A DNA stretch of 64,000 bases, from UHGV virus genome UHGV-1430915; one strand, written 5' to 3'. Of this stretch, positions 7,694 to 52,128 are shown in pieces (within the stretch, counting starts at the first letter, position 1; the number at the start of each line of letters is the position of its first letter). The translations under genes were made by a program, and so were the position numbers. The stretch comes from a virus. The notes beneath the pieces were generated by a model. The model had not been told where the DNA came from. It worked only from the letters and a program-made list of their open reading frames with translations, and did no database searches.

Positions 7694-9241
7694 TTAGATA
7701 AAACGCTTGAACATAGAAGGTGATGAGATTGATGGAATCACACAAGGCAGCGCTACCTCCTCTTTCTCCAGGAAATTAATCGCAGAAGCTACACAGTCGG
7801 CCCAGTCGTCTTTTCTGTTAAATGTTGATCTTTCCCCGTTGAACTTTTCAAGTTCAGTCAGAAATGCTTCCAGAGTGTCAGGATGGAAACTGGATTTTAC
7901 AATCCTCACCATTCCTTGTTGGGCAAGATTGGCAAAAGGTGAGAACCTTGTCAGTTTAGATTTGTTGGAAGGCATTGGATCTTCTTCAACCCTGAACCCT
8001 TCGGCGAGCAAGGATCTGGACGAGGTTAAGAATTCACTCTTACCTGCCTGACCGGGGTCCACAGAAAATACGATTATGCAATCATCTCCATCAAACTGCG
8101 CCTGTTTCCTGATGATCACATCTCGTTCCCCAGCCTTTTTACAGAACTTGCCTTCCAGACCTGTGGAATACCTACCGTCATCCACGTTCTCAGGACAATA
8201 ATCCCCGGACAGGTAATAAAAGCCGTCGCTATCTTTACTTACCTTAACACTGGCGGTAAAGTCAGGAAATTTATTACCGGAAGTTCTCTCGGTTCCTGCC
8301 TTATCCCATGCCCTGCAAGATACTGATCCAAGAGGTACTCTATCGGCATCCCGAAGGAAAGATCTTTGGAAATAGTTTGCACCTTCAGGTTTGGCAAACC
8401 AGTTGCCATGAAGAAGCTGGGCTTTTTCAAGCTCGGGCAGACCTTCAAGGAAAGCAAGGTATTCTGGGTTGTCTCTCAAGCAGACAGGATTATCGAAAAT
8501 TGTTGCGCCTATAAACGAGAATGACAACGGTCTTGGCTTGATCTCCACACCCAGTCCGTTAACCGTGGTGTATTTCTCTATTAACTCCTCTTTAGAGTCT
8601 CCCCAGATAAACTCACCGTCGCGTCGGATAAAATATCTTTTCTTACCACATTTCTCCGGGTCTGGATACCCTTCATCGTCCAACCACCACCTAACCAGTT
8701 TGGCAAGCATGTGTTCTGAGTCTGGGTTACAGCTGATAACCATTCTTGATGGATACTTTGACTGAGATCGCAGACGAGACATCAAATAGTCTATCTGCTC
8801 CCATTCGAATTGCGTGCCTTCATCGAAGCAAACCATGGTGTACTCAAGGCCTTGATGGTTAAGCTTATCTTGGACATACTCCATGTGGCAGTATTTTACA
8901 ACGGCCCCTTTTTTGCTCCTGTCCCACTTGCCAGTGCTCGGATCAAACCGTGGAAAAATAAACTTATGATCCTTCTCTCTGAACTTTGGTTTAATGTTTT
9001 CAGGCAGATCACTGTAAATAGCTACTGCTTTAGGCCATAGACCACCCTCACCTTCCAACTGTGGAGTTGTTCTTCGGAACATAACCACAGAGCTGTGCGG
9101 GTCATCAATAATTTTAAGCGGCATTAGCTGCAAGAGGAACGACTTGCCAGACCCAGCTGCACCTCCGATCACCAAAATATCTGCATCGTTCTCTAGGATC
9201 ATCTTCTGCTTTTCAGAACACGGTCCGTAAATCTTAGACAT
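7694..9241 (-). CDS. terminase large subunit
   Basis: Walker A VIGGAAGSGKS near N-terminus, Walker B-like MVCFDEGTQ, C-terminal acidic nuclease-like region; 515 aa. Confidence 0.85.
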   Translation of the reverse strand: MSKIYGPCSEKQKMILENDADILVIGGAAGSGKSFLLQLMPLKIIDDPHSSVVMFRRTTPQLEGEGGLWPKAVAIYSDLPENIKPKFREKDHKFIFPRFDPSTGKWDRSKKGAVVKYCHMEYVQDKLNHQGLEYTMVCFDEGTQFEWEQIDYLMSRLRSQSKYPSRMVISCNPDSEHMLAKLVRWWLDDEGYPDPEKCGKKRYFIRRDGEFIWGDSKEELIEKYTTVNGLGVEIKPRPLSFSFIGATIFDNPVCLRDNPEYLAFLEGLPELEKAQLLHGNWFAKPEGANYFQRSFLRDADRVPLGSVSCRAWDKAGTERTSGNKFPDFTASVKVSKDSDGFYYLSGDYCPENVDDGRYSTGLEGKFCKKAGERDVIIRKQAQFDGDDCIIVFSVDPGQAGKSEFLTSSRSLLAEGFRVEEDPMPSNKSKLTRFSPFANLAQQGMVRIVKSSFHPDTLEAFLTELEKFNGERSTFNRKDDWADCVASAINFLEKEEVALPCVIPSISSPSMFKRFI

Positions 9242-9528
9242 TAACCTCTCTCCTTTGGAAACAGTGTTCTTATATAGTCTTGCAAAATGATCAATTTAGC
9301 TCTATCATTACTACAAGACAGGTTATTATCCCTCATAATGCCAGAATTCACCGCATCTGGCGCACCTTTCTTCAAAGGGATAGCTTTAGCAGGTGGTTTC
9401 ATAGCACCCTCGGGAGGTTTAACAATCAACCTTCCTACATCCGGAGGGTCAATCTTGTATTCTCTCTCAACGCTGGTTGCACACCCACACAATAACAAGC
9501 ACAAAACAACCAGTGCAGTAACTCTCAT
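9241..9528 (-). CDS. o-spanin (Rz1-like outer-membrane lipoprotein)
   Basis: signal peptide with lipobox-like LLLCGCA, Pro-rich mature region, C-terminal ERG as in lambda Rz1; ATGA overlap with preceding i-spanin; stop overlaps terminase start. Confidence 0.6.
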   Translation of the reverse strand: MRVTALVVLCLLLCGCATSVEREYKIDPPDVGRLIVKPPEGAMKPPAKAIPLKKGAPDAVNSGIMRDNNLSCSNDRAKLIILQDYIRTLFPKERG

Positions 9529-25869: not shown

Positions 25870-25897
25870 GGGAGGCTTGCGCCTCCCTTTTCCTTTT
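25870..25897 (+). terminator. intrinsic terminator
   Basis: GGGAGGC-ttgc-GCCTCCC followed by TTTTCCTTTT. Confidence 0.65.
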
Positions 25898-25906
25898 GGA
25901 GGCACT

Positions 25907-26713
25907 TTGAGCAAGAAAGAGTCCAACGACAAATATTACACAGACCCCGAGTATGCAGAATATCTTGTTGGTAAAGTAAAAGGTAAGTATGGGAATTGTG
26001 CATACGTTGAGCCTTCTGCTGGAAAGGGTTCTTTTTCAAAACTATTTTCAGAGATACTGTCGTATGATTTGGTACCAGACCCTGAATTTGAAGGCCCAAC
26101 CCCGTGTATTAAGGCAAACTTCTTAGAGGTGTATCCCAAGGCCGATGTATTCATAGGTAATCCTCCATTCGGCAAAAATTCGTCTTTAGCTTGCAAGTTC
26201 TTTAACCACTGTGCATCATTGCTAGAGCCTGGTGGAGCTATAGCCTTCATCTTGCCACGGACTTTTGAAAAAATATTTTTTGCAAACAAACTGGACATGT
26301 CGATGCACCTTATTTACAGTGAAAGGTGCCCCAAGAACTCGTTTTTACTTAACGGCAAACCTTATGACGTGCCATGTGTTTTCCAAATTTGGGAGAAAAA
26401 GGTGTGCAGTAGGGATCCTGTAGAGATCGGGGAGAATAAGTTATTTTCTTTTGGCACACCGAATGATTATGACTTCTGTATAAGACGTGTTGGGTATAAT
26501 GCTGGGAAAGTATTGGGAGATGATGACCCAAAATCTGAAGAATCAACATATTTCATAAAATCTTTAGTTGATGGTATTGACAGAGTGTTTGTTGAGTGCT
26601 ATTCTTCTTTTCAAGAAGAAGCAGGTAAGACTGCTGGAATGAAGAGTATAGGCAAGAAAGAACTACAATACATTTTGGAGACCAGGTATGATCAAAAGCA
26701 TAGACTTGACTAA
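25907..26713 (+). CDS. DNA methyltransferase (N6-adenine or N4-cytosine), probable TTG start
   Basis: motif I VEPSAGKGSF, motif IV FIGNPPFG; track start 25877 lies in terminator hairpin, so in-frame TTG 25907 after GGAGG proposed. Confidence 0.6.
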   Translation: MSKKESNDKYYTDPEYAEYLVGKVKGKYGNCAYVEPSAGKGSFSKLFSEILSYDLVPDPEFEGPTPCIKANFLEVYPKADVFIGNPPFGKNSSLACKFFNHCASLLEPGGAIAFILPRTFEKIFFANKLDMSMHLIYSERCPKNSFLLNGKPYDVPCVFQIWEKKVCSRDPVEIGENKLFSFGTPNDYDFCIRRVGYNAGKVLGDDDPKSEESTYFIKSLVDGIDRVFVECYSSFQEEAGKTAGMKSIGKKELQYILETRYDQKHRLD

Positions 26714-27161: not shown

Positions 27162-27365
27162 TTGGAGACCGCAATGACACCAGAGTTAACAATTCCAGAC
27201 AGCTTTTCAGAAAGATTTATCCCAGAAATGATGAAGAAGATGCGATCACTGCTTGATCAGATTGAGGAGGCTGTTTGGGAAGACGATGCTGTAGTAGCTA
27301 ACGAGCTGGTAGATAAGTGTAAAAGTATTATTGATGCAGTTGAAGAATACCACGGAGGTTTTTAA
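27162..27365 (+). CDS. hypothetical protein
   Basis: 67-aa acidic ORF with RBS. Confidence 0.5.
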   Translation: METAMTPELTIPDSFSERFIPEMMKKMRSLLDQIEEAVWEDDAVVANELVDKCKSIIDAVEEYHGGF

Positions 27366-27967
27366 TGGATATTATTGTTCTTAATGCTCCACCAAGTTCT
27401 GGAAAAGACCATATCGCAGATCTTTTGTTGGAAGCCATTCCAAACTCGCATCACCGAGAGGTAAAGGAAATGCTATTCAGTGTGGCAATTAAGGCAGCTG
27501 GTATTTCACCGCAGTTGTGGAATGCACTCTATGATCGCCGCTACAAAGAAGAACCGTGCCCGTTCTTAATGATAGACGGCAAGCATGTTTCTCCGCGAGA
27601 ATGGATGATCCATTGTAGTGAAAATCTGATTAAACCTATCTTTGGTGAAGACGCTTTCGGTAAGGCCGCAGTCGCATCCTTGAAGAAAGATTTCCCTGAA
27701 GGTAAAGGGGTTGTTGTTTACTCCGATGGTGGCTTCAAAGAGGAGCTGGCATGCCTTGGCGAGTACGCATACAGCACAGGTGGCGATCTTCTACTGTTCC
27801 GTATCCACCGTGCAGGATATGATTGGGGAAATGATTCCAGAACTTACCTTAGCCTAGAGAAGAACGGGATAAAAGGTATCGAGTTTGATGTTGTTAACCC
27901 TGAGGGGTCTCCTTGGGAGTGCGCATCTGAGATTGTGTGCAAGTATATTGATGCTAAAGAGGTCTGA
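27365..27967 (+). CDS. dNMP kinase-like protein
   Basis: N-terminal P-loop-like NAPPSSGKDHIADL resembles T4 gp1 SG.KRSGKD. Confidence 0.45.
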   Translation: MDIIVLNAPPSSGKDHIADLLLEAIPNSHHREVKEMLFSVAIKAAGISPQLWNALYDRRYKEEPCPFLMIDGKHVSPREWMIHCSENLIKPIFGEDAFGKAAVASLKKDFPEGKGVVVYSDGGFKEELACLGEYAYSTGGDLLLFRIHRAGYDWGNDSRTYLSLEKNGIKGIEFDVVNPEGSPWECASEIVCKYIDAKEV

Positions 27968-27972
27968 GAACA

Positions 27973-28566
27973 ATGCTGATCGGAATTGATGTAGATTTAA
28001 CACTGGTAGACTCAGGAACAGCATGGTGGGAGTGGCTAGAGCGTTTATATGGTCCAGCCAGCAAGACAGTCGCTAAACCTTCTAACGGACTGATGTATTA
28101 CGATCTGTCAAAGTATTGGCCTGATCGCCCCAAAGAAAACATCATAGGGCCTTTTGATTTCTGGAGTGACCCGTTCCTCTACGACTTTCTTAAGCCTGAA
28201 GAGGGGGCTATTGAGGTTATGAAAGATTTGGTGGCTCGTGGTCACAAGCTTGCATTTATCTCTGTATGCAAGAAAGGTCACCTTGCATCTAAATCAAGGT
28301 TCTTAAAGCGTTGGACCAGCGATTTTATGGATCTTGACGATCACACCCAGGGCCACGGCTTCTATGCCACACATTTCAAAGGTAATGTGGCTGTAGATGT
28401 TATAATTGACGACAGGCATGAATACCTGAACCAATTCGCTTCACGCCCTGAAGTTATTAAAATCTTAAAAGACACTCCTTATGAGCAATTCGAGGAGTTG
28501 AAGGTCAGTGTTGACTATACCACCAATAGTTGGTATAAAATAGGAAAGTTTTTAGAAGGTATTTGA
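27973..28566 (+). CDS. HAD-superfamily phosphatase (possible 5'-deoxyribonucleotidase)
   Basis: motif I IGIDVDLTLVD (DxDxT), motif IV-like VIIDDR. Confidence 0.45.
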   Translation: MLIGIDVDLTLVDSGTAWWEWLERLYGPASKTVAKPSNGLMYYDLSKYWPDRPKENIIGPFDFWSDPFLYDFLKPEEGAIEVMKDLVARGHKLAFISVCKKGHLASKSRFLKRWTSDFMDLDDHTQGHGFYATHFKGNVAVDVIIDDRHEYLNQFASRPEVIKILKDTPYEQFEELKVSVDYTTNSWYKIGKFLEGI

Positions 28567-28567
28567 A

Positions 28568-28768
28568 ATGGGCAGATGTTCTAAAGGTGGCGATCCTGTA
28601 GTCAGATACGGTGACTGGCTAGAGGTATATGATCTTGGAGGTAAGCTAGTGTATGCCTCTAGGATCACCCAAGACATGTGCTCTGATATGTTTAACAGAT
28701 ACCTTGCATTTAAGGCCAACATAAACCCAGACGAAATTTCCAAAATTAAAACAAGGAGAGCTAAATAA
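28568..28768 (+). CDS. hypothetical protein
   Basis: 66-aa ORF. Confidence 0.45.
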   Translation: MGRCSKGGDPVVRYGDWLEVYDLGGKLVYASRITQDMCSDMFNRYLAFKANINPDEISKIKTRRAK

Positions 28769-29751
28769 TGCTAAAACTGTGCACTGCAAAGATTATTGCC
28801 GACAGTATTTCCGAGAAAGGTAAGCGTATCACCACTTTTGAGCTAGAGTATCCTCGAATTATTCACTCAGAGCTTATGACACATCGAGTGTTCAGCCGAA
28901 ACGCCATGTCTTCTCGTGCAGTTCCTGTCGGTAAGATGCTGCAGCAGATCGTGGAGAATCCGGCAATGCCAGTTCGCTTCGGTGTAAATAAGCGAGGGAT
29001 GGAAGATGGTGGGGAACACGATCAAAAGATCCGTGTAGAGTATACCGACATGGAGTTAACTCCTGAAGAGTTTTGGAAAGAAGCTGCAAAAAACGCCGCG
29101 TGGCATGCAGAGAAGTTCGCCCTTGCTGGTTACCATAAGCAGGTATGTAATCGCTTAGTGGAGCCGTTTCAGCGCATGAAAACAGTTGTAACAAGCACCG
29201 AGTGGAATAATTTTTTCCACCTGCGTTGCTGGCACGATGCTGATCCTACGATTCAGATGCTGGCTAATTGTATGTGGGATGCTCTTATGAATAGCACTCC
29301 TGAAACCCTTAAACCGGGTCAATGGCACACCCCATATGTAGAGCACGTTTATTTGGACGGTGAGTTTAACTACGCTGTACGTGACACAGAAGGGAAGCTA
29401 TGCATTCTCGATACTAAAGAAGCCCTATCTATTAGTGCTAGTTGCTGTGCACAAGTATCTTATCGAAATATTGACAGCACGTTTGAAAAGGCAGACAGTG
29501 TGGCTAAAAAATTGATTGGCGGGGATCGTATTCATGCAAGCCCTTACGAGCACCAGGCAACACCTATGGATCACGATAACGCAATGGAACGTTTAAACTA
29601 CTACCTGTCTTCATGTGAAATCACACAGGACAGCTGTGTTTGGCAGGAAGGTGTAACCCATCAAGACCGTGATGGTAAATTCTGGTCTGCCAACTTTTGT
29701 GGGTGGGTTCAGCACAGACAGCTGCTTAATAACCACTTCATGAAAGGTTAA
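28768..29751 (+). CDS. thyX: flavin-dependent thymidylate synthase
   Basis: ELMTHRVFSRNAMSSR resembles ThyX signature (RHR-x7-S; first R replaced by T); 327 aa. Confidence 0.6.
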   Translation: MLKLCTAKIIADSISEKGKRITTFELEYPRIIHSELMTHRVFSRNAMSSRAVPVGKMLQQIVENPAMPVRFGVNKRGMEDGGEHDQKIRVEYTDMELTPEEFWKEAAKNAAWHAEKFALAGYHKQVCNRLVEPFQRMKTVVTSTEWNNFFHLRCWHDADPTIQMLANCMWDALMNSTPETLKPGQWHTPYVEHVYLDGEFNYAVRDTEGKLCILDTKEALSISASCCAQVSYRNIDSTFEKADSVAKKLIGGDRIHASPYEHQATPMDHDNAMERLNYYLSSCEITQDSCVWQEGVTHQDRDGKFWSANFCGWVQHRQLLNNHFMKG

Positions 29752-29780
29752 TCCTATCACAGCGATAGGTAACTTTTGTG

Positions 29781-29809
29781 TTGACTAATAGTATTAGATA
29801 ATCTATAAT
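29781..29809 (+). promoter_or_regulatory. sigma70-like promoter
   Basis: TTGACT-17 nt-TATAAT. Confidence 0.65.
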
Positions 29810-29837
29810 AATGGCTCACTTTGTTGGTGAGCCAGAA

Positions 29838-30311
29838 ATGGAGACAGGTATGAGTAATGTTATGATTCCTAAAAAGACATTTATTTCAGTTACTTTAGAT
29901 TTCCTATCTACTGTTCCCGGATTTAACGTTCGCACACGAAACGGTCTCCGAGCTGCACTCTTTGCTGTAGGGTTTGATTTAAAAAATATTGATGTTCTTC
30001 GTGGAAAAAACGTTCGATGCAAAAATAAGCCAACACATTATAGAAAGGCAGATGTATTTGCTGGTGTCATGCGTGCAGACTTTAGATACCCGCAAATGTA
30101 TAACGGTGTAGATATTTTAGATGTAGATAAAGCACCCGATGAGGCAATGCTTGTTCAAGATCTTCCCTATGATATCCCTGTAGAAGATCGTGTTAATGTA
30201 AGAAAGTATACAAAACAATCTGAAAAGGCTGAAGATATTCATATTGTTGATGAACCTTTCAATTTTGAAGATCTGCATCGCCTGGAAAAATTATTCGGTA
30301 TTGAAAGCTAA
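29838..30311 (+). CDS. hypothetical protein
   Basis: start moved downstream of promoter to ATG 29838 (alternative 29850). Confidence 0.5.
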   Translation: METGMSNVMIPKKTFISVTLDFLSTVPGFNVRTRNGLRAALFAVGFDLKNIDVLRGKNVRCKNKPTHYRKADVFAGVMRADFRYPQMYNGVDILDVDKAPDEAMLVQDLPYDIPVEDRVNVRKYTKQSEKAEDIHIVDEPFNFEDLHRLEKLFGIES

Positions 30312-30321
30312 GGTGGTGAAG

Positions 30322-30552
30322 ATGAGTCATAACTCCAAGTGGAAGGATCTTGGTTTTGCAAGTCGGGCAGAATATGTTGGTTGGCTTTGGTTCAACGGTC
30401 TGACAAACGATATTAAAATGTATGATGATGTTTACTATGACGAGTATACAGGTAAAATTATAAATATCTCTGTAGAAGAGGATACCTTTGTCCAGCAAGA
30501 TACTGATACCTGCCTTGATAAATACGTTGATGAAGTGGAGGAAGCAAATTGA
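30322..30552 (+). CDS. hypothetical protein
   Basis: start at ATG 30322 after AGGTGG RBS; stop overlaps nrdA start. Confidence 0.5.
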   Translation: MSHNSKWKDLGFASRAEYVGWLWFNGLTNDIKMYDDVYYDEYTGKIINISVEEDTFVQQDTDTCLDKYVDEVEEAN

Positions 30553-32864
30553 TCACCAAGGTAATTAAAAGCAACGGATGTGAAGTGGCATTCGATCCAG
30601 AACGTTTAAATAAGGCGGCTATTTTCGGTGACGACGGTAACGGCAATTGGTCACATATTGCACTGGATGCATACAAGCGGCTGTATGATGGATGTACAAC
30701 CAAAGAAGTTAACCAAGCTATTATAGACTCTTGTGTTAGCCGTAAAGACGAAGCACATTCCCGTATGGCTGGTCGTGTTCTTATTGGTCAGATTTATAAA
30801 GAGGCTTTTGGAGGGTTTACAAAGATCCCTTCCTTACCATCATTTTACAATACCATGGTTGAGAAAGGGTATTGGGAGGATATGGGTTATAGCTTTACCG
30901 AGCTAAACACTTTAGACGCTGTTATTGACCACAGTAAAGATCTCGGTTATGGCTATGCAGTCCTTAAACAGTTTCGAGACAAATACGGGATCAAGGATAC
31001 TCTTAAAGACACCCTGTTCGAATCTCCACAGATGATGTTTATGGGGATAGCGATGGCTGTCATGAAAAATATGCCGAAAGAACGCCGTATTGACGATGTT
31101 GTAAAATTATACACTTATCTGTCAGACTTAAAGATCAATGCCCCGACACCGTACTTAAACGGGCTGCGCACAGGCAAGACAGGGTATGCATCTTGTTGTG
31201 TAATAAAAGCTGACGATACAGCAAAATCTATTGGTGTGGCACGTGAAGTTGCATACACAATGACGGTTAACCAAGCAGGTATTGGCTACTATTTATCATC
31301 AAGATCTGCAGGTGATGGTGTTCGTGGTAACACTATTAAACATATGGGCAAGATTCCATATTATCGAGGTATTGATGCTGGGGTTAAGGAGAACAGACAA
31401 CAATCACGTGGCGGTTCTGCAACAGTATCATTCCTTGCACTGGACCCGCAGATTGATGAGCTAATCCGTTTGAGAAACCCTATGACTGTTGCTTCAAAAA
31501 GAATCAACACCATGGACTACTCTATAGGTATTAATAGGTCGTTTATCAACCGTGTGGCTAAAAATTTAGATTGGATGCTTGTTTCTTATAAGCACGCGCC
31601 TCAACTGCATGAAGGTATCTTCACCATGTCTATGGAGGAGTTTGATGCCGAGGTTGATCGTATCGCTAAAGATGACAGTATTCCTAAAACATGGATCCGA
31701 GCTAGAGATCTTGCTGTTGAGCTGATCACGCAGCGCACCGAGGTTGGAAGGTTGTACGTATACTGGACAGATGAGATGAATAGACATACACCTTTTAAAG
31801 ATGTGATCTATTCAAGTAACCTGTGTGCAGAAATAGCCCTCCCGACAAAAGGCTATTCAGATATGCGTAATATCTTCAAGTACGATGTTGATGATGGCGA
31901 AGTTGCATTGTGCTTCCTGTCATCTCTTGTAGCTGGAAGGGTTACCCCAGAGGAGTATGAGGATGTTGCATACTACACGGTGCTTATGATTGACAATGTT
32001 ATGGAAATCATGACATATCCGTATGAAAATATGGAGAGCACTGTTAAAAAACGCAGATCCATCGGGGTTGGCCTTACCAATGTTGCACATTTTATTGCCA
32101 GCCACAAGGTTGCTTACGGGTCTCCTGAAAGTAAACAGCTTGTTCACGATCTTGCAGAGCTCCACAGCTACAGCTTGCATAAGGCAAGTTTACGATTGGC
32201 AAAAGAGCGGGGTGTCTGTGAGTGGATGCATAAAACAAAATACCCGGAGGGTTGGTTACCAATCGACACTTATAACAAAGAGGTCGATAGTGTGGTGAAA
32301 GATCCTTCTCTTAAGCAGGATTGGGAAGGGTTACGTAAAGAAATCATTGAAAATGGTGGGCTACGTAATAGCGTTCTTGAAGCATATATGCCTAATGAAA
32401 GCTCTTCGCTGGCAACAAACACCACTAACGGGGTTTATCCTGTCCGTGAGCACATTATCTTTAAAAAGTCGCCACAAGGGCAGGTGCTGTTTATCGTTCC
32501 TGAATATGATGAACTGAAAGAGTATTATACCTCTGCCTGGGACGTTGATACTAACGACATGATTGATATGTATGCTGTGATTCAAAAATTCACAGGACAG
32601 GCAATTAGTGCTGACCTATATATTGATTACACCAAGTTGAAAGATGGTAAAATTTCAATGAAGGAGCAGCTGGGGTATCTTATCCGTGCTACTAAATTCG
32701 GGATGAAGACATGGTATTACTTAAACTCTCGGGTTGGTGCTGGTGACTCTTTGACAGAGGAGCTTCACGCGAAGAAACAGGCTGAAGATGAAACCAGAAA
32801 GAACTATCCTTTGATTGCAGATAGTTCAGTTGAAGATCCATATTGCGAAAGTTGTGCACTGTAA
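30549..32864 (+). CDS. nrdA: ribonucleotide reductase class Ia alpha subunit
   Basis: 771 aa; N-terminal ATP-cone-like region; active-site SSNLCAEIALP; C-terminal CESCAL. Confidence 0.9.
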   Translation: MITKVIKSNGCEVAFDPERLNKAAIFGDDGNGNWSHIALDAYKRLYDGCTTKEVNQAIIDSCVSRKDEAHSRMAGRVLIGQIYKEAFGGFTKIPSLPSFYNTMVEKGYWEDMGYSFTELNTLDAVIDHSKDLGYGYAVLKQFRDKYGIKDTLKDTLFESPQMMFMGIAMAVMKNMPKERRIDDVVKLYTYLSDLKINAPTPYLNGLRTGKTGYASCCVIKADDTAKSIGVAREVAYTMTVNQAGIGYYLSSRSAGDGVRGNTIKHMGKIPYYRGIDAGVKENRQQSRGGSATVSFLALDPQIDELIRLRNPMTVASKRINTMDYSIGINRSFINRVAKNLDWMLVSYKHAPQLHEGIFTMSMEEFDAEVDRIAKDDSIPKTWIRARDLAVELITQRTEVGRLYVYWTDEMNRHTPFKDVIYSSNLCAEIALPTKGYSDMRNIFKYDVDDGEVALCFLSSLVAGRVTPEEYEDVAYYTVLMIDNVMEIMTYPYENMESTVKKRRSIGVGLTNVAHFIASHKVAYGSPESKQLVHDLAELHSYSLHKASLRLAKERGVCEWMHKTKYPEGWLPIDTYNKEVDSVVKDPSLKQDWEGLRKEIIENGGLRNSVLEAYMPNESSSLATNTTNGVYPVREHIIFKKSPQGQVLFIVPEYDELKEYYTSAWDVDTNDMIDMYAVIQKFTGQAISADLYIDYTKLKDGKISMKEQLGYLIRATKFGMKTWYYLNSRVGAGDSLTEELHAKKQAEDETRKNYPLIADSSVEDPYCESCAL

Positions 32865-32872
32865 TTTAAAAA

Positions 32873-32892
32873 GGGGCTTCGGCCCCATTTTA
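32873..32892 (+). terminator. weak terminator or attenuator between nrdA and nrdB
   Basis: GGGGC-ttcg-GCCCC followed by ATTTTAG. Confidence 0.35.
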
Positions 32893-32903
32893 GAGGTAGA
32901 ATA

Positions 32904-33992
32904 ATGGCTGTATTTAATACTGAGAACACTGCTCATAAAACTGGTGATTATCCGCTGTTTTTAGGACAGCAGATGGGGATGTACGACTCTATTAACAAAA
33001 AGTACCCACAGCTGTTTGAACTATACAAAAAACAAAAAGAACAAGATTGGGCAGAGGACGAAGTAGATTTGTCACAGTCTATTTCGGATTTCGTAACATG
33101 CTCAAAGTCAACTTACGATGTGATGGTGCAGACACTTATGTGGCAATGGGAGGCAGACAGTGTTGCAGCAAGATCTATCATTTGTCTGTTTTCACCATTT
33201 ATCACCAATAGTGAACTTTTCACCTTGTTGATGAAGCAGTCTGAGATTGAGGTTCTTCATGCATTAACTTACTCAGAGATTGTTAGACAATGCCTTCCTA
33301 ATGCTCGTGAGATTATAGAAGAGATTCAGGAAAACCAGAACGTGCTGAGCAGATCTGGAGTTATTGTCAAATATATGCAAGAGCTTGAGGTTATTGGTGC
33401 AAAATACCGACTGGATCCTTCCAGTGTTGAAGAGGATGTTGTACGGAAATGTATCCTTAGAGCACTTTTTGCACTTTTAGCTCTAGAAAGTATTGAGTTT
33501 ATTGCAAGTTTTGCATGTACGTTCGCAGTAGCTGAGCAAGGTATTTTTGTTCAAGTTGCACAACTCGTTCAAAAAATTATGCTTGATGAAATGCTGCATT
33601 CGAAAGGCGATTTTGCTATCATCGATATCCTGCTTGATGATCCTGCATGGGAGCAAAGCTTTCTTGAGATTAAGGGTGAGTTAAAAGAAATTCTTGACGA
33701 AGTGCGAATCAAGGAGTACGGTTGGAGTGACTATATTTTCAGCGAAGGAAGAGCAATTATAGGTCTTAACTCACCATTACTTAAAGAATGGGTTGACTAT
33801 AACTGCTCACCGATTTATGATTACTACAACATCGACAAAGACTTTGTGCCGCCAACAAAGGACCCGTTACCGTTTATGCAGGTGTGGATGAAACCTTCAC
33901 TGCAACAGACGGCTAACCAGGAAATGTCTAACACCGACTACCGCGTCAACACAACTGTTAATGACGCTGAAGAAGAAATTTGGGAGTTTTAA
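32904..33992 (+). CDS. nrdB: ribonucleotide reductase class Ia beta subunit
   Basis: 362 aa directly after nrdA; ferritin-like helical protein of expected size. Confidence 0.8.
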   Translation: MAVFNTENTAHKTGDYPLFLGQQMGMYDSINKKYPQLFELYKKQKEQDWAEDEVDLSQSISDFVTCSKSTYDVMVQTLMWQWEADSVAARSIICLFSPFITNSELFTLLMKQSEIEVLHALTYSEIVRQCLPNAREIIEEIQENQNVLSRSGVIVKYMQELEVIGAKYRLDPSSVEEDVVRKCILRALFALLALESIEFIASFACTFAVAEQGIFVQVAQLVQKIMLDEMLHSKGDFAIIDILLDDPAWEQSFLEIKGELKEILDEVRIKEYGWSDYIFSEGRAIIGLNSPLLKEWVDYNCSPIYDYYNIDKDFVPPTKDPLPFMQVWMKPSLQQTANQEMSNTDYRVNTTVNDAEEEIWEF

Positions 33993-33995
33993 TAT

Positions 33996-34274
33996 ATGAG
34001 TTGTGAAAAATCTTTTTTCATTATCATCTACGGTAAGGATAACTGCCCACATTGTGTAAGAGCAAAAGAATTTGCAGTAAGCAAAGGTATACCTTTCGTA
34101 TACAAGACGCTCGGTGAAGGATACACAAAAGAAGAGCTTATTGAGAAGTGTAGTCCATTTGTTCCCAGAACGTTGCCTCAGATCTTCTTGGAAAGCAACC
34201 TTGATAGTGTCCACATAGGTGGTGCTGACGATTTCATCTCTTTTGTTAAGAATGGTCTTGGAGAGAAAAAGTGA
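33996..34274 (+). CDS. glutaredoxin-like redoxin (NrdC/NrdH-like)
   Basis: 92 aa with CPHC active site near N-terminus; between nrdB and nrdD. Confidence 0.65.
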   Translation: MSCEKSFFIIIYGKDNCPHCVRAKEFAVSKGIPFVYKTLGEGYTKEELIEKCSPFVPRTLPQIFLESNLDSVHIGGADDFISFVKNGLGEKK

Positions 34275-36394
34275 AAGTTGTAAAACGGGACGGCAGAGAA
34301 GAGGTCTATAACGGAGTTAAGGTAATCAAGGCGGCAGAGTCCGCCTTACTTGAGTCTGGGCATACTGAAGAAGAAGCTTACCGGATCGCTTGTGCGGTTA
34401 ATGAAGTTGTTGCCAACAATCTACCAACCGACCAGTGCACGATCTCTGTAAAAAATATCCATATCCTTGTTGAAGATGCTCTTATGGATATGGGTTTAAA
34501 ATGTGCAGCCAGAGAATATATCCAGTATAGACAGACAAGAGATAATAACAGAGAGGCAGGTGGAAAACTGCTTGCAGATATTAGTGGCTTCTTGGATCGA
34601 ACTTGTGATGAATTTACAAAAGAAAACGCAAATAAGCCCACTAATCATGTACATACTCATCGTGACCTGCTTGCAGGTATCCTTAGCAAACACCTTGCAT
34701 CAACACAGATACTGCCAGATCGTGTCTCCGAAGAGCACAACAAGGGATTCATCCATGTGCATGATCTTGACTATCTGATCAGTCCGTTAACAAACTGCTG
34801 TTTGGTGAATTATCCGGATATGCTGGAAAACGGATTCAACATTGGCAACGCCCATGTCAGTAAGCCGAAGTCAATAGGGGTTGCAACAACAATCCTCAGC
34901 CAAATCTCTAGTGCAGTAGCTAGTGCTCAATATGGTGGTCAGACCATGAGCCATATTGATCATTATCTGGCGCAGTATGCTGAAGCAACCTATGAGAAGA
35001 ATCTTAAATTTTGTCAGGAACATTGGTTGCCGGATGCTGAGACTGTTGCAATGCAAATGACGGATAAAGACGTGTTTGATAGTATGCAAACTTTGCTATA
35101 CCAAATCAATACGTTAACTTCTGTCAACGGGCAAACTCCATTCATCACATTAAGTTTAGGACTGGATACCTCAATCTTTGGTAGAATGATTACCAAAAAC
35201 TACCTGAAAGTCCACAAAATGGGTCTTGGTGAAGAACGTATCACACCTGTGTTCCCTAAGGTGTTGTTCTTCCTGGAGGAGGGTATCAACATGAACCCCG
35301 AGGATCCTAACTATGATTTGAAACGATTAGCTCTGGAATGCTCTGCAGAGCGGATTTATCCTGACTTCGTATCTGTACCACTAAATAGAAAAGTGACAGG
35401 TTCAACAGAAGGTAATGTCACAAGCATGGGTTGCCGGAGTTTTCTTAGCAAATACAATGACTTGGAAACAGGAGAGGAGAAATACCTTGGCAGATTTAAC
35501 TTAGGTGTTGTTAGCCTTAACCTACCAATGATTGCAGCCAAAGCTAAAACGGAAGGTGTTGATTTCTTTGCAGTTCTTGACGAGTACTTGGATCTGGCCT
35601 ACGAGGCTCACCTTGTAAGGGTTAACCGTCTAAAAGGAACAAAGGCAGGGCAGAACCCCATCATGTGGTGTGAAGGAGCCCTTGCTCGCCTGGATCCTGA
35701 AGAGAGTATTGATAAACTCTTCTATGACGGGTATGCTTCCATAAGTATTGGATATATTGGTGTGTATGAAACCTGCCAGATTTTAGGCAGAGAGGGAGAC
35801 AAGTCCTTAGCTCTTGGGATCCTTCAGCACATGAAAGACGCTTGTGATCGGTACAAAAAAGAAAGTGGTCTGGCATTCAGCTTGTACGGCACTCCTTCAG
35901 AGAGCTTGTGCTATAAGGCTGCAACATGTCTAGATCGTGAATATCCTGAAGTGTTGAAGCACGAGCACGAATACCTTACCAACAGTTTCCACCAGCCCGT
36001 GTGGATCAATAGTTCACCTTTTGACAAGTGGAAGTATGAGGAAGGTTTTGCTATGATCTCTTCTGGCGGCAACATTGGATACATAGAAACACCTAACCTG
36101 AAAAACAACCTGGATGCTTTGGAAGCCCTTGTCGATTTCGGGTATAAACACATTATGTATTTTGGTATTAACCAACCTGTGGATAAATGCCTTAAGTGTG
36201 GATTCTCTGGTGAGTTCAGTGCAACAGCTAAAGGCTTTGTATGCCCAGAGTGTGGAAACCATGAAGAAGGAACGATCAGCGTGATTAGACGTGTATCTGG
36301 GTATTTGTCTAGTCCAAACTCCCGTCCTTACAACAAAGGTAAGCAAGCGGAAGTTATAGAACGGGTTAAGCACTACGGAAGTTGTGGTTGCTGA
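34271..36394 (+). CDS. nrdD: anaerobic ribonucleoside-triphosphate reductase
   Basis: 707 aa; C-terminal glycyl-radical motif RVSGY and zinc ribbon CLKCG...CPECG. Confidence 0.9.
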   Translation: MKVVKRDGREEVYNGVKVIKAAESALLESGHTEEEAYRIACAVNEVVANNLPTDQCTISVKNIHILVEDALMDMGLKCAAREYIQYRQTRDNNREAGGKLLADISGFLDRTCDEFTKENANKPTNHVHTHRDLLAGILSKHLASTQILPDRVSEEHNKGFIHVHDLDYLISPLTNCCLVNYPDMLENGFNIGNAHVSKPKSIGVATTILSQISSAVASAQYGGQTMSHIDHYLAQYAEATYEKNLKFCQEHWLPDAETVAMQMTDKDVFDSMQTLLYQINTLTSVNGQTPFITLSLGLDTSIFGRMITKNYLKVHKMGLGEERITPVFPKVLFFLEEGINMNPEDPNYDLKRLALECSAERIYPDFVSVPLNRKVTGSTEGNVTSMGCRSFLSKYNDLETGEEKYLGRFNLGVVSLNLPMIAAKAKTEGVDFFAVLDEYLDLAYEAHLVRVNRLKGTKAGQNPIMWCEGALARLDPEESIDKLFYDGYASISIGYIGVYETCQILGREGDKSLALGILQHMKDACDRYKKESGLAFSLYGTPSESLCYKAATCLDREYPEVLKHEHEYLTNSFHQPVWINSSPFDKWKYEEGFAMISSGGNIGYIETPNLKNNLDALEALVDFGYKHIMYFGINQPVDKCLKCGFSGEFSATAKGFVCPECGNHEEGTISVIRRVSGYLSSPNSRPYNKGKQAEVIERVKHYGSCGC

Positions 36395-36457
36395 TACTTG
36401 ACAAAAGCCACAAGGATGTGGCATATTGTTATCACACAGTAAACTAGGAGGTGCAGT

Positions 36458-36574
36458 ATGTCTACAGGTATTTATAAAATTTGCAAGTGCGGTTGTCATT
36501 GCAATCTTCGTTGGTGTAAGGCACTGGACGATTTTATTTGGCATTGTCCTAAATGCGATGCGGAGTACTTATGA
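36458..36574 (+). CDS. small Cys-rich protein (38 aa), translationally coupled to nrdG
   Basis: not in ORF track; ATG after AGGAGG; CKCGCHC...CPKC; stop overlaps nrdG ATG as ATGA. Confidence 0.45.
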   Translation: MSTGIYKICKCGCHCNLRWCKALDDFIWHCPKCDAEYL

Positions 36575-37044
36575 ATATTGTCGGATACACAGAAATATCC
36601 TACACCGAAGGGCCGGGTCTCAGGACGGCCTTGTGGGTATCTGGGTGCCCACACGCTTGTCCTGGTTGCTTTAATCAAGCATTTTGGTCAAAAGATAAGG
36701 GAAGAGAATTCACCGAAGAAGATTTGCAGAGAATTTTGTCAGATTTAGACAATGAATCTATATGCGGTATTTCTTTGCTTGGTGGAGAACCTTTGGCTAC
36801 GTATAATGAGCCCGGTATTATTAAACTTATGAGGAGAATTAAGGAAAAGTTTGGTGACAAGAAAACTATTCTTGTGTATACTGGGTTCACATTTGAGCAT
36901 ATCTCTAGTGATGTTCTTGAGCTGGCTGATATCATCATTGATGGCAAGTATGTAAAAGATTTACCAACAAAGAAACCATTCCGAGGCAGCGATAACCAAA
37001 GAATGTTTAAAAAGGTAGCAGGCGGTTGGGTTCAGGTTGACTAG
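36571..37044 (+). CDS. nrdG: anaerobic RNR activating protein (radical SAM)
   Basis: CPHACPGC (Cx3Cx2C) radical-SAM cluster motif; start set at ATG 36571. Confidence 0.85.
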   Translation: MNIVGYTEISYTEGPGLRTALWVSGCPHACPGCFNQAFWSKDKGREFTEEDLQRILSDLDNESICGISLLGGEPLATYNEPGIIKLMRRIKEKFGDKKTILVYTGFTFEHISSDVLELADIIIDGKYVKDLPTKKPFRGSDNQRMFKKVAGGWVQVD

Positions 37045-37047
37045 TCG

Positions 37048-37077
37048 TTGACAAAGCTTTGGTAAGTTGGTTATAAT
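37048..37077 (+). promoter_or_regulatory. sigma70-like promoter
   Basis: TTGACA-18 nt-TATAAT. Confidence 0.65.
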
Positions 37078-37106
37078 TATCGTAATGAAAGCAGAGGAGG
37101 TGCCAA

Positions 37107-37220
37107 ATGGCTAAAAAAGCCTTGAAGAAGGCGTACAAGAAAGAGATTGCGCTTGAGCTTAAGAAAAAACACAAGCGTGAAAAGAAATGTCATGAAGATG
37201 AAGAGGGGGTGCAACAGTGA
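37107..37220 (+). CDS. small Lys-rich basic protein (37 aa)
   Basis: not in ORF track; ATG after GGAGG, downstream of promoter. Confidence 0.4.
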   Translation: MAKKALKKAYKKEIALELKKKHKREKKCHEDEEGVQQ

Positions 37221-37567
37221 CACAAGAGCGTATTGATTTAGCCAGTAAGTTTGTAGATCTCATTTTGCCACGGTTGGTTACTCAACATGCAGACGCTATT
37301 TCTACCAATCTTGATGGCTTACGCCTAATGCTGAACCGAACAGATGATCCACGTATTCGGGCCGATTTAGAGGCCTCTGCCAACAAACTGGAAAAGTTCT
37401 TGCAAGTAGATACGCAAGAAGCCTTGCACAAGATTATGGTGGAAGGTTTCTCTAAAGAATTCACCGTTAAAGAGCTTAAGGAGCTGATCCGCCAAGAAGA
37501 GATGAATATCCGAGTTCAGGCTGTTGCAAGCAGCATGGAAGCGGCTATTGAAAAACTGTTGCAGTAG
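37217..37567 (+). CDS. hypothetical protein
   Basis: 116-aa ORF, GTG start overlapping preceding stop. Confidence 0.5.
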   Translation: MTQERIDLASKFVDLILPRLVTQHADAISTNLDGLRLMLNRTDDPRIRADLEASANKLEKFLQVDTQEALHKIMVEGFSKEFTVKELKELIRQEEMNIRVQAVASSMEAAIEKLLQ

Positions 37568-37605
37568 AAGTTCTTGACACATCTCAATCTGAAAGGAGTC
37601 CCAAC

Positions 37606-38394
37606 ATGGGTCGAGCTAAAGAAACAAAACGCATGCGTGATGAAGCCAAAGAGGCTCGCAAATCTGATCGTCTGCGTAAGGCTGCTGAGAAATTTGCTGA
37701 CGAACGAGAGCACACAGCTCCAGCTCTCAGACCAATGAACAAAAAGCAGCAAAAGTATCTTGATTATCTAGGATCGCGTAAGATTATTATTGTAAACGGT
37801 GTGTTTGGATCCGGTAAGACATTCATGGCATCCGCATATGCAGGTGATCTTTTGCGTAAGAACGAGATTGATAAGATCATTGTTGCACGCCCTTACGTTC
37901 AGACAGGAAAGACTTCAGGGTTTAAACCTGGAAACGCAATGCAGAAACTGTGGCCCTATCTCCGAAGCATGATGGACACGATTTGTCGTCGTGTTGGCAA
38001 AGGTGCTTTTGCCGCAATGCTGGGGGATGGTCAGAACAGTCGTATCGAGATCTGTGAAGTTGAAAGCATTCGTGGTCGTAGTTTCGATGAGCGGTGCTTT
38101 GTCCTAATTGACGAGGCACAGCAAACTAACCCTGAAGAAATGTTATCAATTATCACAAGGATCTCTGATCAGGCCACACTTGTAATCATGGGTGATAATA
38201 GCCAACGTGACATCCCTGGTAAGTCTGGGCTTGCATGGGTAACGGATTTCTTTACTCGTCATCCAGATCCTGAGGTTGGGATGATTAGCTTTGATAGTCC
38301 AGACGATGTCGTTCGTTCTGGGTTGGGTCGTCAGATCGCACTCAATCTTATTGAGGATCGTGCAAATCATATTTGGACCCCTGTTTCCGAGTAA
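37606..38394 (+). CDS. phoH: PhoH-like ATPase
   Basis: Walker A GVFGSGKTFMA, Walker B-like FVLIDEAQ; 262 aa. Confidence 0.8.
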   Translation: MGRAKETKRMRDEAKEARKSDRLRKAAEKFADEREHTAPALRPMNKKQQKYLDYLGSRKIIIVNGVFGSGKTFMASAYAGDLLRKNEIDKIIVARPYVQTGKTSGFKPGNAMQKLWPYLRSMMDTICRRVGKGAFAAMLGDGQNSRIEICEVESIRGRSFDERCFVLIDEAQQTNPEEMLSIITRISDQATLVIMGDNSQRDIPGKSGLAWVTDFFTRHPDPEVGMISFDSPDDVVRSGLGRQIALNLIEDRANHIWTPVSE

Positions 38395-38867: not shown

Positions 38868-39917
38868 ATGAATTTAACACCTCGCAGAACCATGGTACAC
38901 GGCATGAAAGAAAAACAGAACGGTTTCGAACCTATGAGTAATAAAATGTTTGGTATGCCGGGCGGTATCATGGAAACATACAGCTACCCAACACCTGTTG
39001 TTGACCACGTTCTTTATATCGACGATTTGGAAGACTTACAAGACCATATGTCTCGTCTGCAGACGATCCGTATGGCTCAGCCGGAAGAAAGCATTCGGGT
39101 GATCATCAATAGCCCTGGGGGTTGCGTGCACATTGCAATGGCTTATCTGCAGGCATTCCGAGAGTCTCAGGCAAGCGTTGTCGTACACGCTGAAGGGATG
39201 TGCTGCTCAGCAGGAACAATCTTATGGCTGGGTTGCAAAGAACGCACTGTGGCTCCGGACACAGAATTTATGTTCCACTACTATCAAGGTGGCACTTATG
39301 GTAACGGTGTGAACATGAATACTCAGGTCAGCTACTGGAAAAAACGTTTTGAACGCCTGATTGAAAAATACTACGGTGGGGTGCTGACAGAAGATGAGAT
39401 CGCATCCATCACAGCTGGCGGTGAAGTGTGGTTGGATGGAGAAGAGCTGGCATCTAGAACTGGTGCTATCATCTTGGACGATGAAAACATTCAGCGCATT
39501 CAGAATGGACAGAAACCGAAAAAGCTTTTGGCAAAAAGAGATGAAGAAGGTGTGTTAGGTGAGGCAGGCCTTCCAGAGATTCACCAATGCACATCTTTGG
39601 ACGAGCTGGTTCATGCTGTTGAGTCTGCAAAAGAAAATGGTATGAAAGGTGATGTTCACACTGTGTTCCTGAATCTACAGATGGAGAGTGGTGAGACCGT
39701 TAAGATTGCACTAGGTGAGATTACCTCGGAAGATCTGCAGCGATTCTCTGTGGTAGAGCTTCAGGACATTTTGTCCCAATTGAAAACTACCCTGAACGGA
39801 GGTGAAGAAGTTCAGGTGAAAGATAAGACTCGCAAGCGTCTGGTGGACAATATTATTAAAACAGCAAAAGAGCTTAATGAAAAAATCCTGGGCGCAGGAA
39901 TTGTCGAAGAAGCTTAA
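38868..39917 (+). CDS. ClpP-like serine protease with ~150-aa acidic C-terminal extension (possible prohead protease)
   Basis: IINSPGG, Ser in MCCSAG, His in EFMFHYYQGG match ClpP catalytic core. Confidence 0.7.
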   Translation: MNLTPRRTMVHGMKEKQNGFEPMSNKMFGMPGGIMETYSYPTPVVDHVLYIDDLEDLQDHMSRLQTIRMAQPEESIRVIINSPGGCVHIAMAYLQAFRESQASVVVHAEGMCCSAGTILWLGCKERTVAPDTEFMFHYYQGGTYGNGVNMNTQVSYWKKRFERLIEKYYGGVLTEDEIASITAGGEVWLDGEELASRTGAIILDDENIQRIQNGQKPKKLLAKRDEEGVLGEAGLPEIHQCTSLDELVHAVESAKENGMKGDVHTVFLNLQMESGETVKIALGEITSEDLQRFSVVELQDILSQLKTTLNGGEEVQVKDKTRKRLVDNIIKTAKELNEKILGAGIVEEA

Positions 39918-50910: not shown

Positions 50911-51218
50911 GGTGGATTATGTCTACAACGACAGCTAAATACTCCTATATGCCAGCAACCTCGGCAGAAATAGACTTCAGTTTTGATGTGTTTCCATTGT
51001 TTGAGGTGGTTCTGGCATACCCAACAATACTATCTACTCCTGAATCCCTTGTACCTGTTAAGTTGCAGAACGCTATGCATTCCATGCATTACAACAATAA
51101 ATGTAGGCACAGATGGTGTCAAGACGAGGAAAAAGATCTGGAGAGTTTGAAAGATTTTGACAGTCACCTTTTGACACCTTTTAGTTACTCAAACCTAGAC
51201 AAGCCTTCATGGGTATAG
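50907..51218 (+). CDS. hypothetical protein
   Basis: 103-aa ORF. Confidence 0.5.
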   Translation: MRWIMSTTTAKYSYMPATSAEIDFSFDVFPLFEVVLAYPTILSTPESLVPVKLQNAMHSMHYNNKCRHRWCQDEEKDLESLKDFDSHLLTPFSYSNLDKPSWV

Positions 51219-51431
51219 CAAAATATCAAATTTAAGGCACATAGGACGCTATGTGGCGTCCTTTTCTTTATCTGGTGCACGATTCCATACCTTAAGCAGT
51301 TAATCTCATTACAGAGCGTTTAAAGGCGGCTTACAAGCAACTCTCTATTTCGAGCGTAGCGAGAACGCACGTCCGTTTTGACCCAAATCACCATACGCTC
51401 GGATTTTAACCAAACCCTCGCGGCGTTTCTG

Positions 51432-51460
51432 TTGACACATTACCGCTCCAGTGATAATAT
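51432..51460 (+). promoter_or_regulatory. sigma70-like promoter
   Basis: TTGACA-17 nt-TAATAT; lies inside track ORF 51378..51791, whose 5' part is therefore rejected. Confidence 0.6.
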
Positions 51461-51480
51461 CCACACATCATTTGGAGAAT

Positions 51481-51582
51481 ATGGGATACACAATGAAAAC
51501 ATTGTCAGAGGTTTTGGTGGTGATCCTGATGATCATTACGTCCATAGTGGCTGTTGCCGGAATACTCACGGGTGGAACATGA
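51481..51582 (+). CDS. small hydrophobic peptide (33 aa)
   Basis: ATG after GGAGAAT downstream of promoter; single TM-like segment; stop overlaps next ATG. Confidence 0.35.
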   Translation: MGYTMKTLSEVLVVILMIITSIVAVAGILTGGT

Positions 51583-51791
51583 TAAACACACATGCATCTG
51601 AAGAGACATCCAAAGGAGTGACTATATGTCCCTTGGCTGAGCCAGTGAAAGAGGAAAACTTAGATTCTGAAGATTCTCCATCTTCGCTCCAGGTAGATCC
51701 TGAGGCTGATGACCTAACGTGGGAAGACATCGTAGACATCTGGTTCTCCATTATGCCTGAGCACGAAGAGTTCAGAGGTGGCAGACTATGA
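51579..51791 (+). CDS. hypothetical acidic protein
   Basis: in-frame 3' part of track ORF 51378..51791 starting at ATG 51579. Confidence 0.35.
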   Translation: MINTHASEETSKGVTICPLAEPVKEENLDSEDSPSSLQVDPEADDLTWEDIVDIWFSIMPEHEEFRGGRL

Positions 51792-51912
51792 AGCACCGAG
51801 CCCACACAGGTTCCTCATGCTAAAGCATGGCCTGAAGAGGCAAACGTGCATAATTCCTGTGCATTGGAACGTATAAAACCCTGTTCACACTCTCATTTCT
51901 AGAGGAGATTTC

Positions 51913-52128
51913 ATGAAGATAGAAATATTTGGTGGAGCTGACAACACTTGTGGCCTGATTTACCTCGAATTCGATGAATCGTACCTGCCAGAAGTGTTAA
52001 ACATGGATTCTGTTGCTGAGGCTTTGGGAGTAAGTCCTAAAGATCTCTACTCTGGTGCTGAGATTGATGGTTGGGAGGAGACCATGAACATCGATTTCAG
52101 TGAAGTAGGTGATGAACCGCTGGACTGA
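51913..52128 (+). CDS. small acidic protein, family A-like
   Basis: MKIEIFGG start, 71 aa, acidic. Confidence 0.5.
   Translation: MKIEIFGGADNTCGLIYLEFDESYLPEVLNMDSVAEALGVSPKDLYSGAEIDGWEETMNIDFSEVGDEPLD

Follow-up and report, generated by a model that had tools for sequence, protein, structure and literature searches.

A probable nucleotide-metabolism operon of an rV5-like coliphage and its predicted circularly permuted ThyX-family protein

Bacteriophage T4 carries an extensive gene set for deoxyribonucleoside triphosphate (dNTP) synthesis (nrdA, nrdB, nrdC, nrdD, nrdG, the gene 1 deoxynucleoside monophosphate (dNMP) kinase, td and frd). These genes are dispersed in the T4 genome, which has its cytosine replaced, and the phage uses the thymidylate synthase ThyA (td) together with dihydrofolate reductase (DHFR; frd). 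A related gene set is known from rV5-like coliphages of the genus Vequintavirus. The genome paper of rV5, published in 2013, described a thymidylate synthase (gp106) and subunits of aerobic and anaerobic ribonucleotide reductases (gp109-112 and gp117), and likened the nucleotide genes to those of T4-like phages (PMC3606486). In this work we analysed a stretch of 64,000 nucleotides from the virus genome UHGV-1430915 (the window, to which all coordinates and strands refer), focusing on a gene island at 27365-37044 that encodes a ThyX-family protein, that is, a putative flavin-dependent thymidylate synthase (FDTS), along with ribonucleotide reductases of class Ia and class III. The nucleotide-supply island itself is already known: over 100 phage records have the cluster annotated. 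We consider it highly likely that 27365-37044 is an early/middle nucleotide-metabolism operon of an rV5-like phage and that its ThyX is a genuine thymidylate synthase with a variant mechanism.

A nucleotide search of phage records with positions 28000-38000 of the window revealed 98.7% identity to Escherichia phage EI-SP-GF and, over 10 kb, 94-96% identity to FV3 (95.5%), slur16 and rV5_ev147. At least 80% of this region was covered by 116 phage records at 90-99% identity, so that the layout of the island represents conserved synteny rather than a chance arrangement. Judged from these matches, the window is a Vequintavirus, an rV5-like Escherichia coli phage. The gene set and gene order are identical to those in the RefSeq annotation of FV3 (FV3_00097-00109), which differs in labelling the kinase and the phosphatase of the island as hypothetical proteins. 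In comparison with T4, the window shares both reductase classes and a glutaredoxin/thioredoxin, and encodes a predicted dNMP kinase; it differs in that the island is contiguous, the thymidylate synthase is of the ThyX type, and the annotation of its close relative FV3 lists no DHFR. Some 20-24 records labelled as Campylobacter phages (host C. jejuni) also matched the region, such as MG065658.1, "Campylobacter phage C7", of 134,946 bp, whose ThyX is 96.9% identical to that of the window; these are apparently genomes of rV5-like coliphages that were submitted with a Campylobacter label.

The ThyX-family protein (327 amino acids (aa); 28768-29751, + strand) matched phrog_85 (E 1e-112) and the Pfam family Thy1 (E 3.5e-9; 37.2 bits, cut-off 24.8), the latter with residues 23-178 only, which aligned to model positions 60-190. 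An earlier note on this DNA, made from the letters alone, had let the ThyX assignment depend on alignment over the catalytic region, and the product does align across the catalytic motif. Residues 37-51 read MTHRVFSRNAMSSRA, with THR in place of the RHR found in canonical ThyX. In this motif, T38-H-R-VFSRNAM-S48-S-R50-A51, Thr replaces the first Arg of RHR-x7-S-x-R, the other signature residues being retained (the definition of the motif RHR-x7-S is cited in PMC2826268). The atypical THR pointed out in the earlier note is thus real, and reads at residues 38-40, but Thr38 was present in 98 of 103 diverse homologs; by this comparison THR is a family trait, the consensus within a very large ThyX clade of phages, and not a lesion of this gene. 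The suggestion that it may matter for function was reasonable, and is better framed in terms of a clade-wide alternative solution than of a gene defect.

The order of the canonical segments in this protein was the most distinctive result. A search with the single sequence against PDB chains gave no match at E ≤ 10, and a 20-sequence profile produced only marginal ThyX matches in PDB (E ~1), whose sub-alignments to Thermotoga maritima ThyX (HMMER) gave a first hint of a permuted order. We then compared by hhalign a query profile built from the 103 diverse homologs with a canonical profile of 30 Thermotogae-type ThyX sequences, the T. maritima sequence used being 100% identical to the PDB construct. 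Two out-of-order matches were obtained: query residues 15-195 aligned to canonical positions 55-210 (E 1.9e-6) and residues 219-275 to positions 18-72 (E 1.7e-6). When the canonical profile was doubled, a single collinear match resulted, in which query 15-275 aligned to 55-220 and then to 1-72 (E 2.6e-10, probability 96.8%, score 80.5), and the permuted alignment was reproduced with the single T. maritima sequence as template. Because the two out-of-order matches fuse into one on the doubled template, the phage protein is, at the level of sequence comparison, a circular permutant of canonical ThyX. The canonical N-terminal unit (beta1-beta2-alpha1-alpha2, with Ser30 and His53) would lie at residues ~196-275, behind the catalytic core.

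An AlphaFold2 model built from the 103 homologs reached a pLDDT of 94.3 and a pTM of 0.91, and its order of secondary-structure elements agrees with the permuted arrangement; it replaced a first model from 20 close homologs, which had a pLDDT of 70.9. With this model, the best 50 PDB matches returned by Foldseek were all ThyX entries (E down to 6e-6). We also considered whether the C-terminal GW(I/V)QxRQ might be a second xHR helix, giving one and a half ThyX domains, but a profile-profile comparison in which the first 60 residues were set against the last 73 or 152 gave nothing (E ~0.4). The predicted architecture is therefore a permutation followed by a C-terminal tail specific to the clade (276-327), in which R317 is invariant. 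In relation to canonical ThyX (T. maritima TM0449, PBCV-1 A674R; PF02511, TIGR02170), the phage protein belongs to the same fold family and has HR-x7-S-x-R, but it is longer (327 vs ~220 aa), has canonical positions 1-72 placed after 55-220, and carries the additional stretch at its C-terminus.

Residue equivalences were taken from the hhalign comparison with canonical ThyX and their conservation was counted in the same homologs. The equivalents of T. maritima Ser30 (S231), His53 (H256, in the motif HASPYEH), His79 (H39), Arg90 (R50), Arg147 (R129), Asn169 (N148) and Arg174 (R153) were kept in all 103 sequences, and those of Ser88 (S48), Asn85 (N45) and Arg80 (R40) in 102, 98 and 85 of them, respectively. 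Ser88, Arg90, Arg147 and Arg174 are the dUMP-binding residues in the T. maritima structures (dUMP, deoxyuridine monophosphate). The N-terminal core contains the motif T38-H-R-x7-S48-S-R50-A51 together with R129 and R153, and the relocated C-terminal part contains S231 and H256ASPYEH. The homologs are only 37-60% identical (with one close relative at 82%), and about 15 positions were invariant and more were nearly so; H39, R50, A51, K124, R129, N148, R153, H187, P189, S223, S231, H256 and R317 were invariant. In the T. maritima enzyme, His53 is located on a helix contributed by another monomer, where it stacks against flavin or folate, and Ser30 bonds the C4=O of the flavin (PMC11940539). The segment acting in trans in the canonical tetramer is thus exactly the one moved to the C-terminus in the phage clade.

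Several observations weigh against the assignment of this protein as a working thymidylate synthase. Its score on the NCBIfam thyX equivalog TIGR02170 was 39.7 bits, well under the cut-off of 87.9. The equivalent of Arg78 is T38 (Thr in 98/103), that of Tyr91 is A51 (Ala in 103/103), and Glu86, Glu144, Arg165 and His178 are also changed. According to a 2025 study of T. maritima ThyX, Arg78 stabilises FADH-, facing N1/C2=O of the reduced isoalloxazine, and mutation of Tyr91, which hydrogen-bonds His53, makes flavin oxidation 1000-fold slower (PMC11940539). The Foldseek target TM-scores to solved ThyX structures were 0.45-0.56, values that are no proof of an equivalent active site, even if ~0.5 is what a sequential aligner would be expected to give on a permuted chain. 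Sequence and profile searches of PDB revealed no solved structure for the permuted clade, the literature searched contained no biochemical test of any clade member, and the reading gives no role to the predicted NT5C-like phosphatase encoded beside the dNMP kinase.

One way to accommodate the changed residues would be that other clade-invariant positions, for instance K124, H187 and R317, have taken over from Arg78 and Tyr91. It is possible, although we hold it only tentatively, that the rV5-type ThyX represents a permuted FDTS clade undescribed in the literature searched, which works without Arg78 and Tyr91 by means of different catalytic residues, or perhaps with a different chemistry or product. 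That literature contained no structural study of the clade and no mention of a permuted ThyX, and searches on a duplicated ThyX, on the ICP1 ThyX and on complementation by phage ThyX returned nothing about this clade, which is not proof of novelty.

The distribution of the clade was broad among phages. At the 90% identity level, 7526 clusters among the 8000 candidates scored reached E ≤ 0.001; at 50% identity the number was 5044, 2003 of them with E ≤ 1e-30. A ThyX-like match was present in 1036 phage records, 983 of which cover at least 80% of the protein, and the members include rV5-like, phAPEC8-like, Vibrio ICP1, Pseudomonas PAK_P3-like, N4-like G7C, Stenotrophomonas, Caulobacter and Flavobacterium phages. 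A search of 185,579 species genomes with the closer-homolog alignment returned only 17 loci, nearly all of them on contigs of metagenome-assembled genomes, and the permuted clade is essentially phage-borne; for the same reason, the argument that such a protein might be the sole thymidylate synthase of a cellular genome was not usable. In MK883717.1 (Escherichia phage vB_EcoM-ECP26) the annotation divides the thymidylate synthase into two proteins, of 245 aa and 97 aa in BFVD, probably due to a frameshift or a sequencing error in that record; the window gene is intact.

Inteins were found in 16 of the best 150 representatives at 50% identity. These proteins are 524-683 aa long and carry Intein_splicing plus HNH, or LAGLIDADG, domains; relatives of ~630 aa that match in two stretches, which we had considered as tandem duplications, proved to be intein-containing proteins instead. 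Five insertion sites were identified. Two directly follow H33 and S48, one lies within the THR motif behind R40/F42, and the remaining two follow H155 (LRxH|DAQPEI) and H256 (H|ASPFEH). All of them fall within conserved motifs, the relocated one included, and the window copy has no intein. Inteins are typically inserted at the functional sites of important enzymes, and their positions here argue for an active enzyme.

A different product or substrate seems improbable to us. The permuted enzyme would then make some other C5-substituted pyrimidine nucleotide, such as 5-hydroxymethyl-dUMP, or act on another substrate, and the products of the neighbouring genes, the dNMP kinase and the NT5C-like nucleotidase, would edit the nucleotide pool, as in thymine-replaced phages. 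The systematic loss of the Arg78 and Tyr91 equivalents is in line with this proposal, as is the position of thyX beside a dNMP kinase and a deoxynucleotidase-like phosphatase, and 5-hydroxymethyl-dUMP has reportedly been trapped from the ThyX reaction. A precedent is PolB (PDB 4p5a), a UMP/dUMP C5-methylase of polyoxin biosynthesis in which a ThyX fold departing from standard ThyX has a changed substrate specificity. PolB is a cellular enzyme of secondary metabolism whose segments follow the canonical order to the extent that the alignment reveals it, has no sequence-level relationship to the phage protein beyond the fold, and appeared, at rank 27, among the Foldseek matches of the first, weaker model only. 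Against another product stands the conservation of the dUMP-binding-type residues S48 (102/103) and R50, R129 and R153 (103/103). Furthermore, the clade spans many unrelated phage groups (ICP1, PAK_P3-like, N4-like G7C and phiCbK-like phages), none of which, to our knowledge, has thymine-modified DNA, and the FV3 annotation lists no hypermodification genes. Finally, the Vequintavirinae were found in the BASEL study to be "exceptionally susceptible" to restriction-modification systems (PMC8594841), which argues for ordinary thymine DNA and against thymine replacement.

It is very improbable that the protein is a catalytically dead relic or has a purely regulatory or structural role, the phage relying on host ThyA for thymidine monophosphate (dTMP): the score below the thyX equivalog cut-off, the missing first Arg of RHR and Tyr91, and the fact that the E. 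coli host has a thymidylate synthase of its own would fit such a role, but ~15 positions, including all the retained substrate- and flavin-site residues, are invariant in homologs of only 37-60% identity, the inteins of relatives occupy five conserved motifs, and the gene is kept in more than 1000 phage genomes.

We favour, then, a genuine thymidylate synthase acting beside the reductases of the island. The earlier note had listed ThyX, class Ia (NrdA, NrdB, glutaredoxin) and class III (NrdD, NrdG) components as encoded together, and profile searches supported every one of these assignments. The class I large subunit NrdA (771 aa; 30549-32864, +; Pfam Ribonuc_red_lgC E 1e-100) had class 1a alpha as its best NCBIfam model, and its residues 12-735 aligned to residues 14-742 of E. 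coli R1 in PDB (E 3e-132). The motifs SCCV, SNLCAEI, ALCFLS and WYYLN are the equivalents of E. coli R1 C225, N437/C439/E441, C462 and Y730/Y731, and the protein ends in the cysteine pair CESC. No Pfam ATP-cone match was obtained for NrdA at E ≤ 0.01, although the N-terminal part of the protein can be aligned to E. coli R1 (from residue 12 on) and to PRK09103 (from residue 4 on). The N-terminal region (30549-30950) reads VIKSNG where E. coli R1 has VTKRDG. Feedback inhibition by dATP may be lost or altered in the phage NrdA, whereas a clear ATP-cone is predicted in NrdD. The small subunit NrdB (362 aa; 32904-33992, +; Pfam Ribonuc_red_sm E 6e-29; best NCBIfam model, class Ia beta) keeps the equivalents of D84, E115, H118, Y122, E204, E238, H241, W48 and Y356, which comprise the di-iron ligands, the radical tyrosine and the C-terminal Tyr. 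It is followed by a glutaredoxin (92 aa; 33996-34274, +) with the active site CPHC, a GrxA-type best NCBIfam model and a Pfam Glutaredoxin match of 34.5 bits (cut-off 22.9; E 2.4e-8).

The class III anaerobic ribonucleoside-triphosphate reductase NrdD (707 aa; 34271-36394, +) matched the Pfam families NRDD (E 2.5e-161), Gly_radical and ATP-cone, and among solved structures in PDB it was closest to T4 NrdD (E 2e-168). Alignment to the T4 protein revealed that TNCCLV and MGCRSFLS, with both active-site cysteines, and the glycyl-radical motif RRVSGY are kept, and both zinc-ribbon CxxC pairs (CLKCG and CPECG) are present. Its activase, the radical S-adenosylmethionine (SAM) protein NrdG (163 aa; 36553-37044, +; Pfam Fer4_12 E 5e-43), scored 149.6 bits on TIGR02491 (cut-off 126.1) and has the CxxxCxxC cluster motif CPHACPGC. 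By alignment, the catalytic residues are intact in all reductase components. The window nrdD is uninterrupted, and in this respect it differs from that of FV3 (7771-10689 of the compared FV3 stretch), JEP1, slur16 and other relatives, in which the gene is split into two or three open reading frames (ORFs) by a ~0.8 kb insertion with an HNH homing endonuclease.

Upstream of thyX, the earlier note had placed a dNMP-kinase-like gene and a phosphatase of the HAD superfamily, and profile matches were obtained for both. The kinase-like protein (200 aa; 27365-27967, +) matched phrog_139, "deoxynucleoside monophosphate kinase" (E 2.6e-43), and contains a P-loop-like stretch, NAPPSSGKD; no Pfam or NCBIfam model matched it. 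The 5'(3')-deoxyribonucleotidase-like phosphatase (197 aa; 27973-28566, +) matched phrog_420 (E 1e-46) and Pfam NT5C (E 7e-6; 26.5 bits, cut-off 24.8), and has the DxDxT nucleophile motif as IDVDLT at residues 5-10. These nominally opposing activities stand side by side just upstream of thyX.

Across 27365-37044, every substantial ORF lies on the + strand and the genes are tightly packed, with a G+C content of 0.41-0.44 and a positive GC skew. The sign of the skew changes from negative to positive at ~15000-16000 and back to negative at ~51000-52000, and these flips mark the coding-strand switches that bound the + strand block with the island. Three conserved ORFs on the + strand have no assigned function. 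The first (66 aa; 28568-28768; phrog_4903 E 5.6e-35; hypothetical in FV3) has a stop codon that overlaps the thyX start. The second (166 aa; 29811-30311; phrog_5557 E 2.6e-74; likewise hypothetical in FV3) had no Pfam or NCBIfam match. The third (~100 aa; 30244-30552) matched phrog_5488 with residues 27-101 (E 2.9e-41) and overlaps the nrdA start; translation probably begins a few codons further down (~30250), and FV3 has a 303-nt gene annotated at this position. Downstream of nrdG, profile matches identified a PhoH-like ATPase (37606-38394) and a ClpP-like protease (38868-39917). On the other side of the island, an ORF at 25877-26713 matched the phage DNA methyltransferase families phrog_5172 and phrog_799 and is called a putative N6-adenine methyltransferase in FV3, whose genome annotation has several more methyltransferases.

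Between thyX and the next ORF there is a sigma-70-like promoter match on the + strand (29781-29809; TTGACT-17-TATAAT, 11/12), which is a match to the consensus only. A perfect sigma-70 consensus (TTGACA-18-TATAAT) was observed at 37048-37077, right after nrdG, and a near-consensus site at 36398-36427, between nrdD and nrdG. The total count of promoter-like sites in the region was not above that of shuffled sequences. Host-like promoters have been reported throughout the rV5 genome, and the sites seen here fit that description (PMC3606486).

Taken together, the predicted activities suggest how the operon would provide DNA precursors at phage-demand rates with or without oxygen. In the presence of oxygen, NrdA-NrdB, a class Ia enzyme with a diferric-tyrosyl radical, would reduce nucleoside diphosphates (NDPs), and the phage glutaredoxin would deliver electrons to the C-terminal cysteine pair of NrdA, re-reducing it. 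In its absence, NrdG would use its [4Fe-4S] radical-SAM chemistry to place a glycyl radical on NrdD, allowing the reduction of nucleoside triphosphates. The ThyX-family enzyme would convert dUMP into dTMP with flavin adenine dinucleotide, methylene-tetrahydrofolate and NAD(P)H, regenerating tetrahydrofolate so that DHFR is not needed, and the dNMP kinase would phosphorylate dTMP and salvaged dNMPs to deoxynucleoside diphosphates. Host Ndk and host sources of dUMP would complete the pathway. These enzymatic activities, including dTMP synthesis by the permuted ThyX, are what we infer from the assignments above.

This reading agrees with the earlier proposal of a phage supplying its own dNTPs under oxic and anoxic conditions, and the enteric host that had been expected is borne out by the placement of the window among the rV5-like coliphages. 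The description of the island as complete went too far: the full annotation of FV3 lists no NDP kinase, deoxycytidine monophosphate (dCMP) deaminase, dUTPase, ThyA or DHFR, so host enzymes would still be needed, and the cluster is predicted to cover ribonucleotide reduction, dUMP methylation and dNMP phosphorylation. Since ThyX enzymes regenerate tetrahydrofolate, the lack of an annotated DHFR in FV3 fits a ThyX-type enzyme. In addition, the phage genome has a G+C content of ~42-43% as compared with ~51% in E. coli, and a phage more A+T-rich than its host fits a need for extra dTMP.

The island is ordinary for large virulent coliphages, being the standard nucleotide-supply module of one common and well-sequenced coliphage group, and is nothing new by itself. 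The ThyX clade has a consequence for annotation: its proteins fall under the curated thyX equivalog threshold, yet this is the only candidate thymidylate synthase annotated in FV3. ThyX has drawn study both as a target for antibiotics and for its odd mechanism, in which the flavin is the methylene carrier. If the permuted clade does work without Arg78 and Tyr91, it would constitute a natural experiment on which ThyX residues are really required. The permuted ThyX is thus a modest but real lead for enzymologists, in a clade that occurs in many phages studied for therapy or biocontrol.

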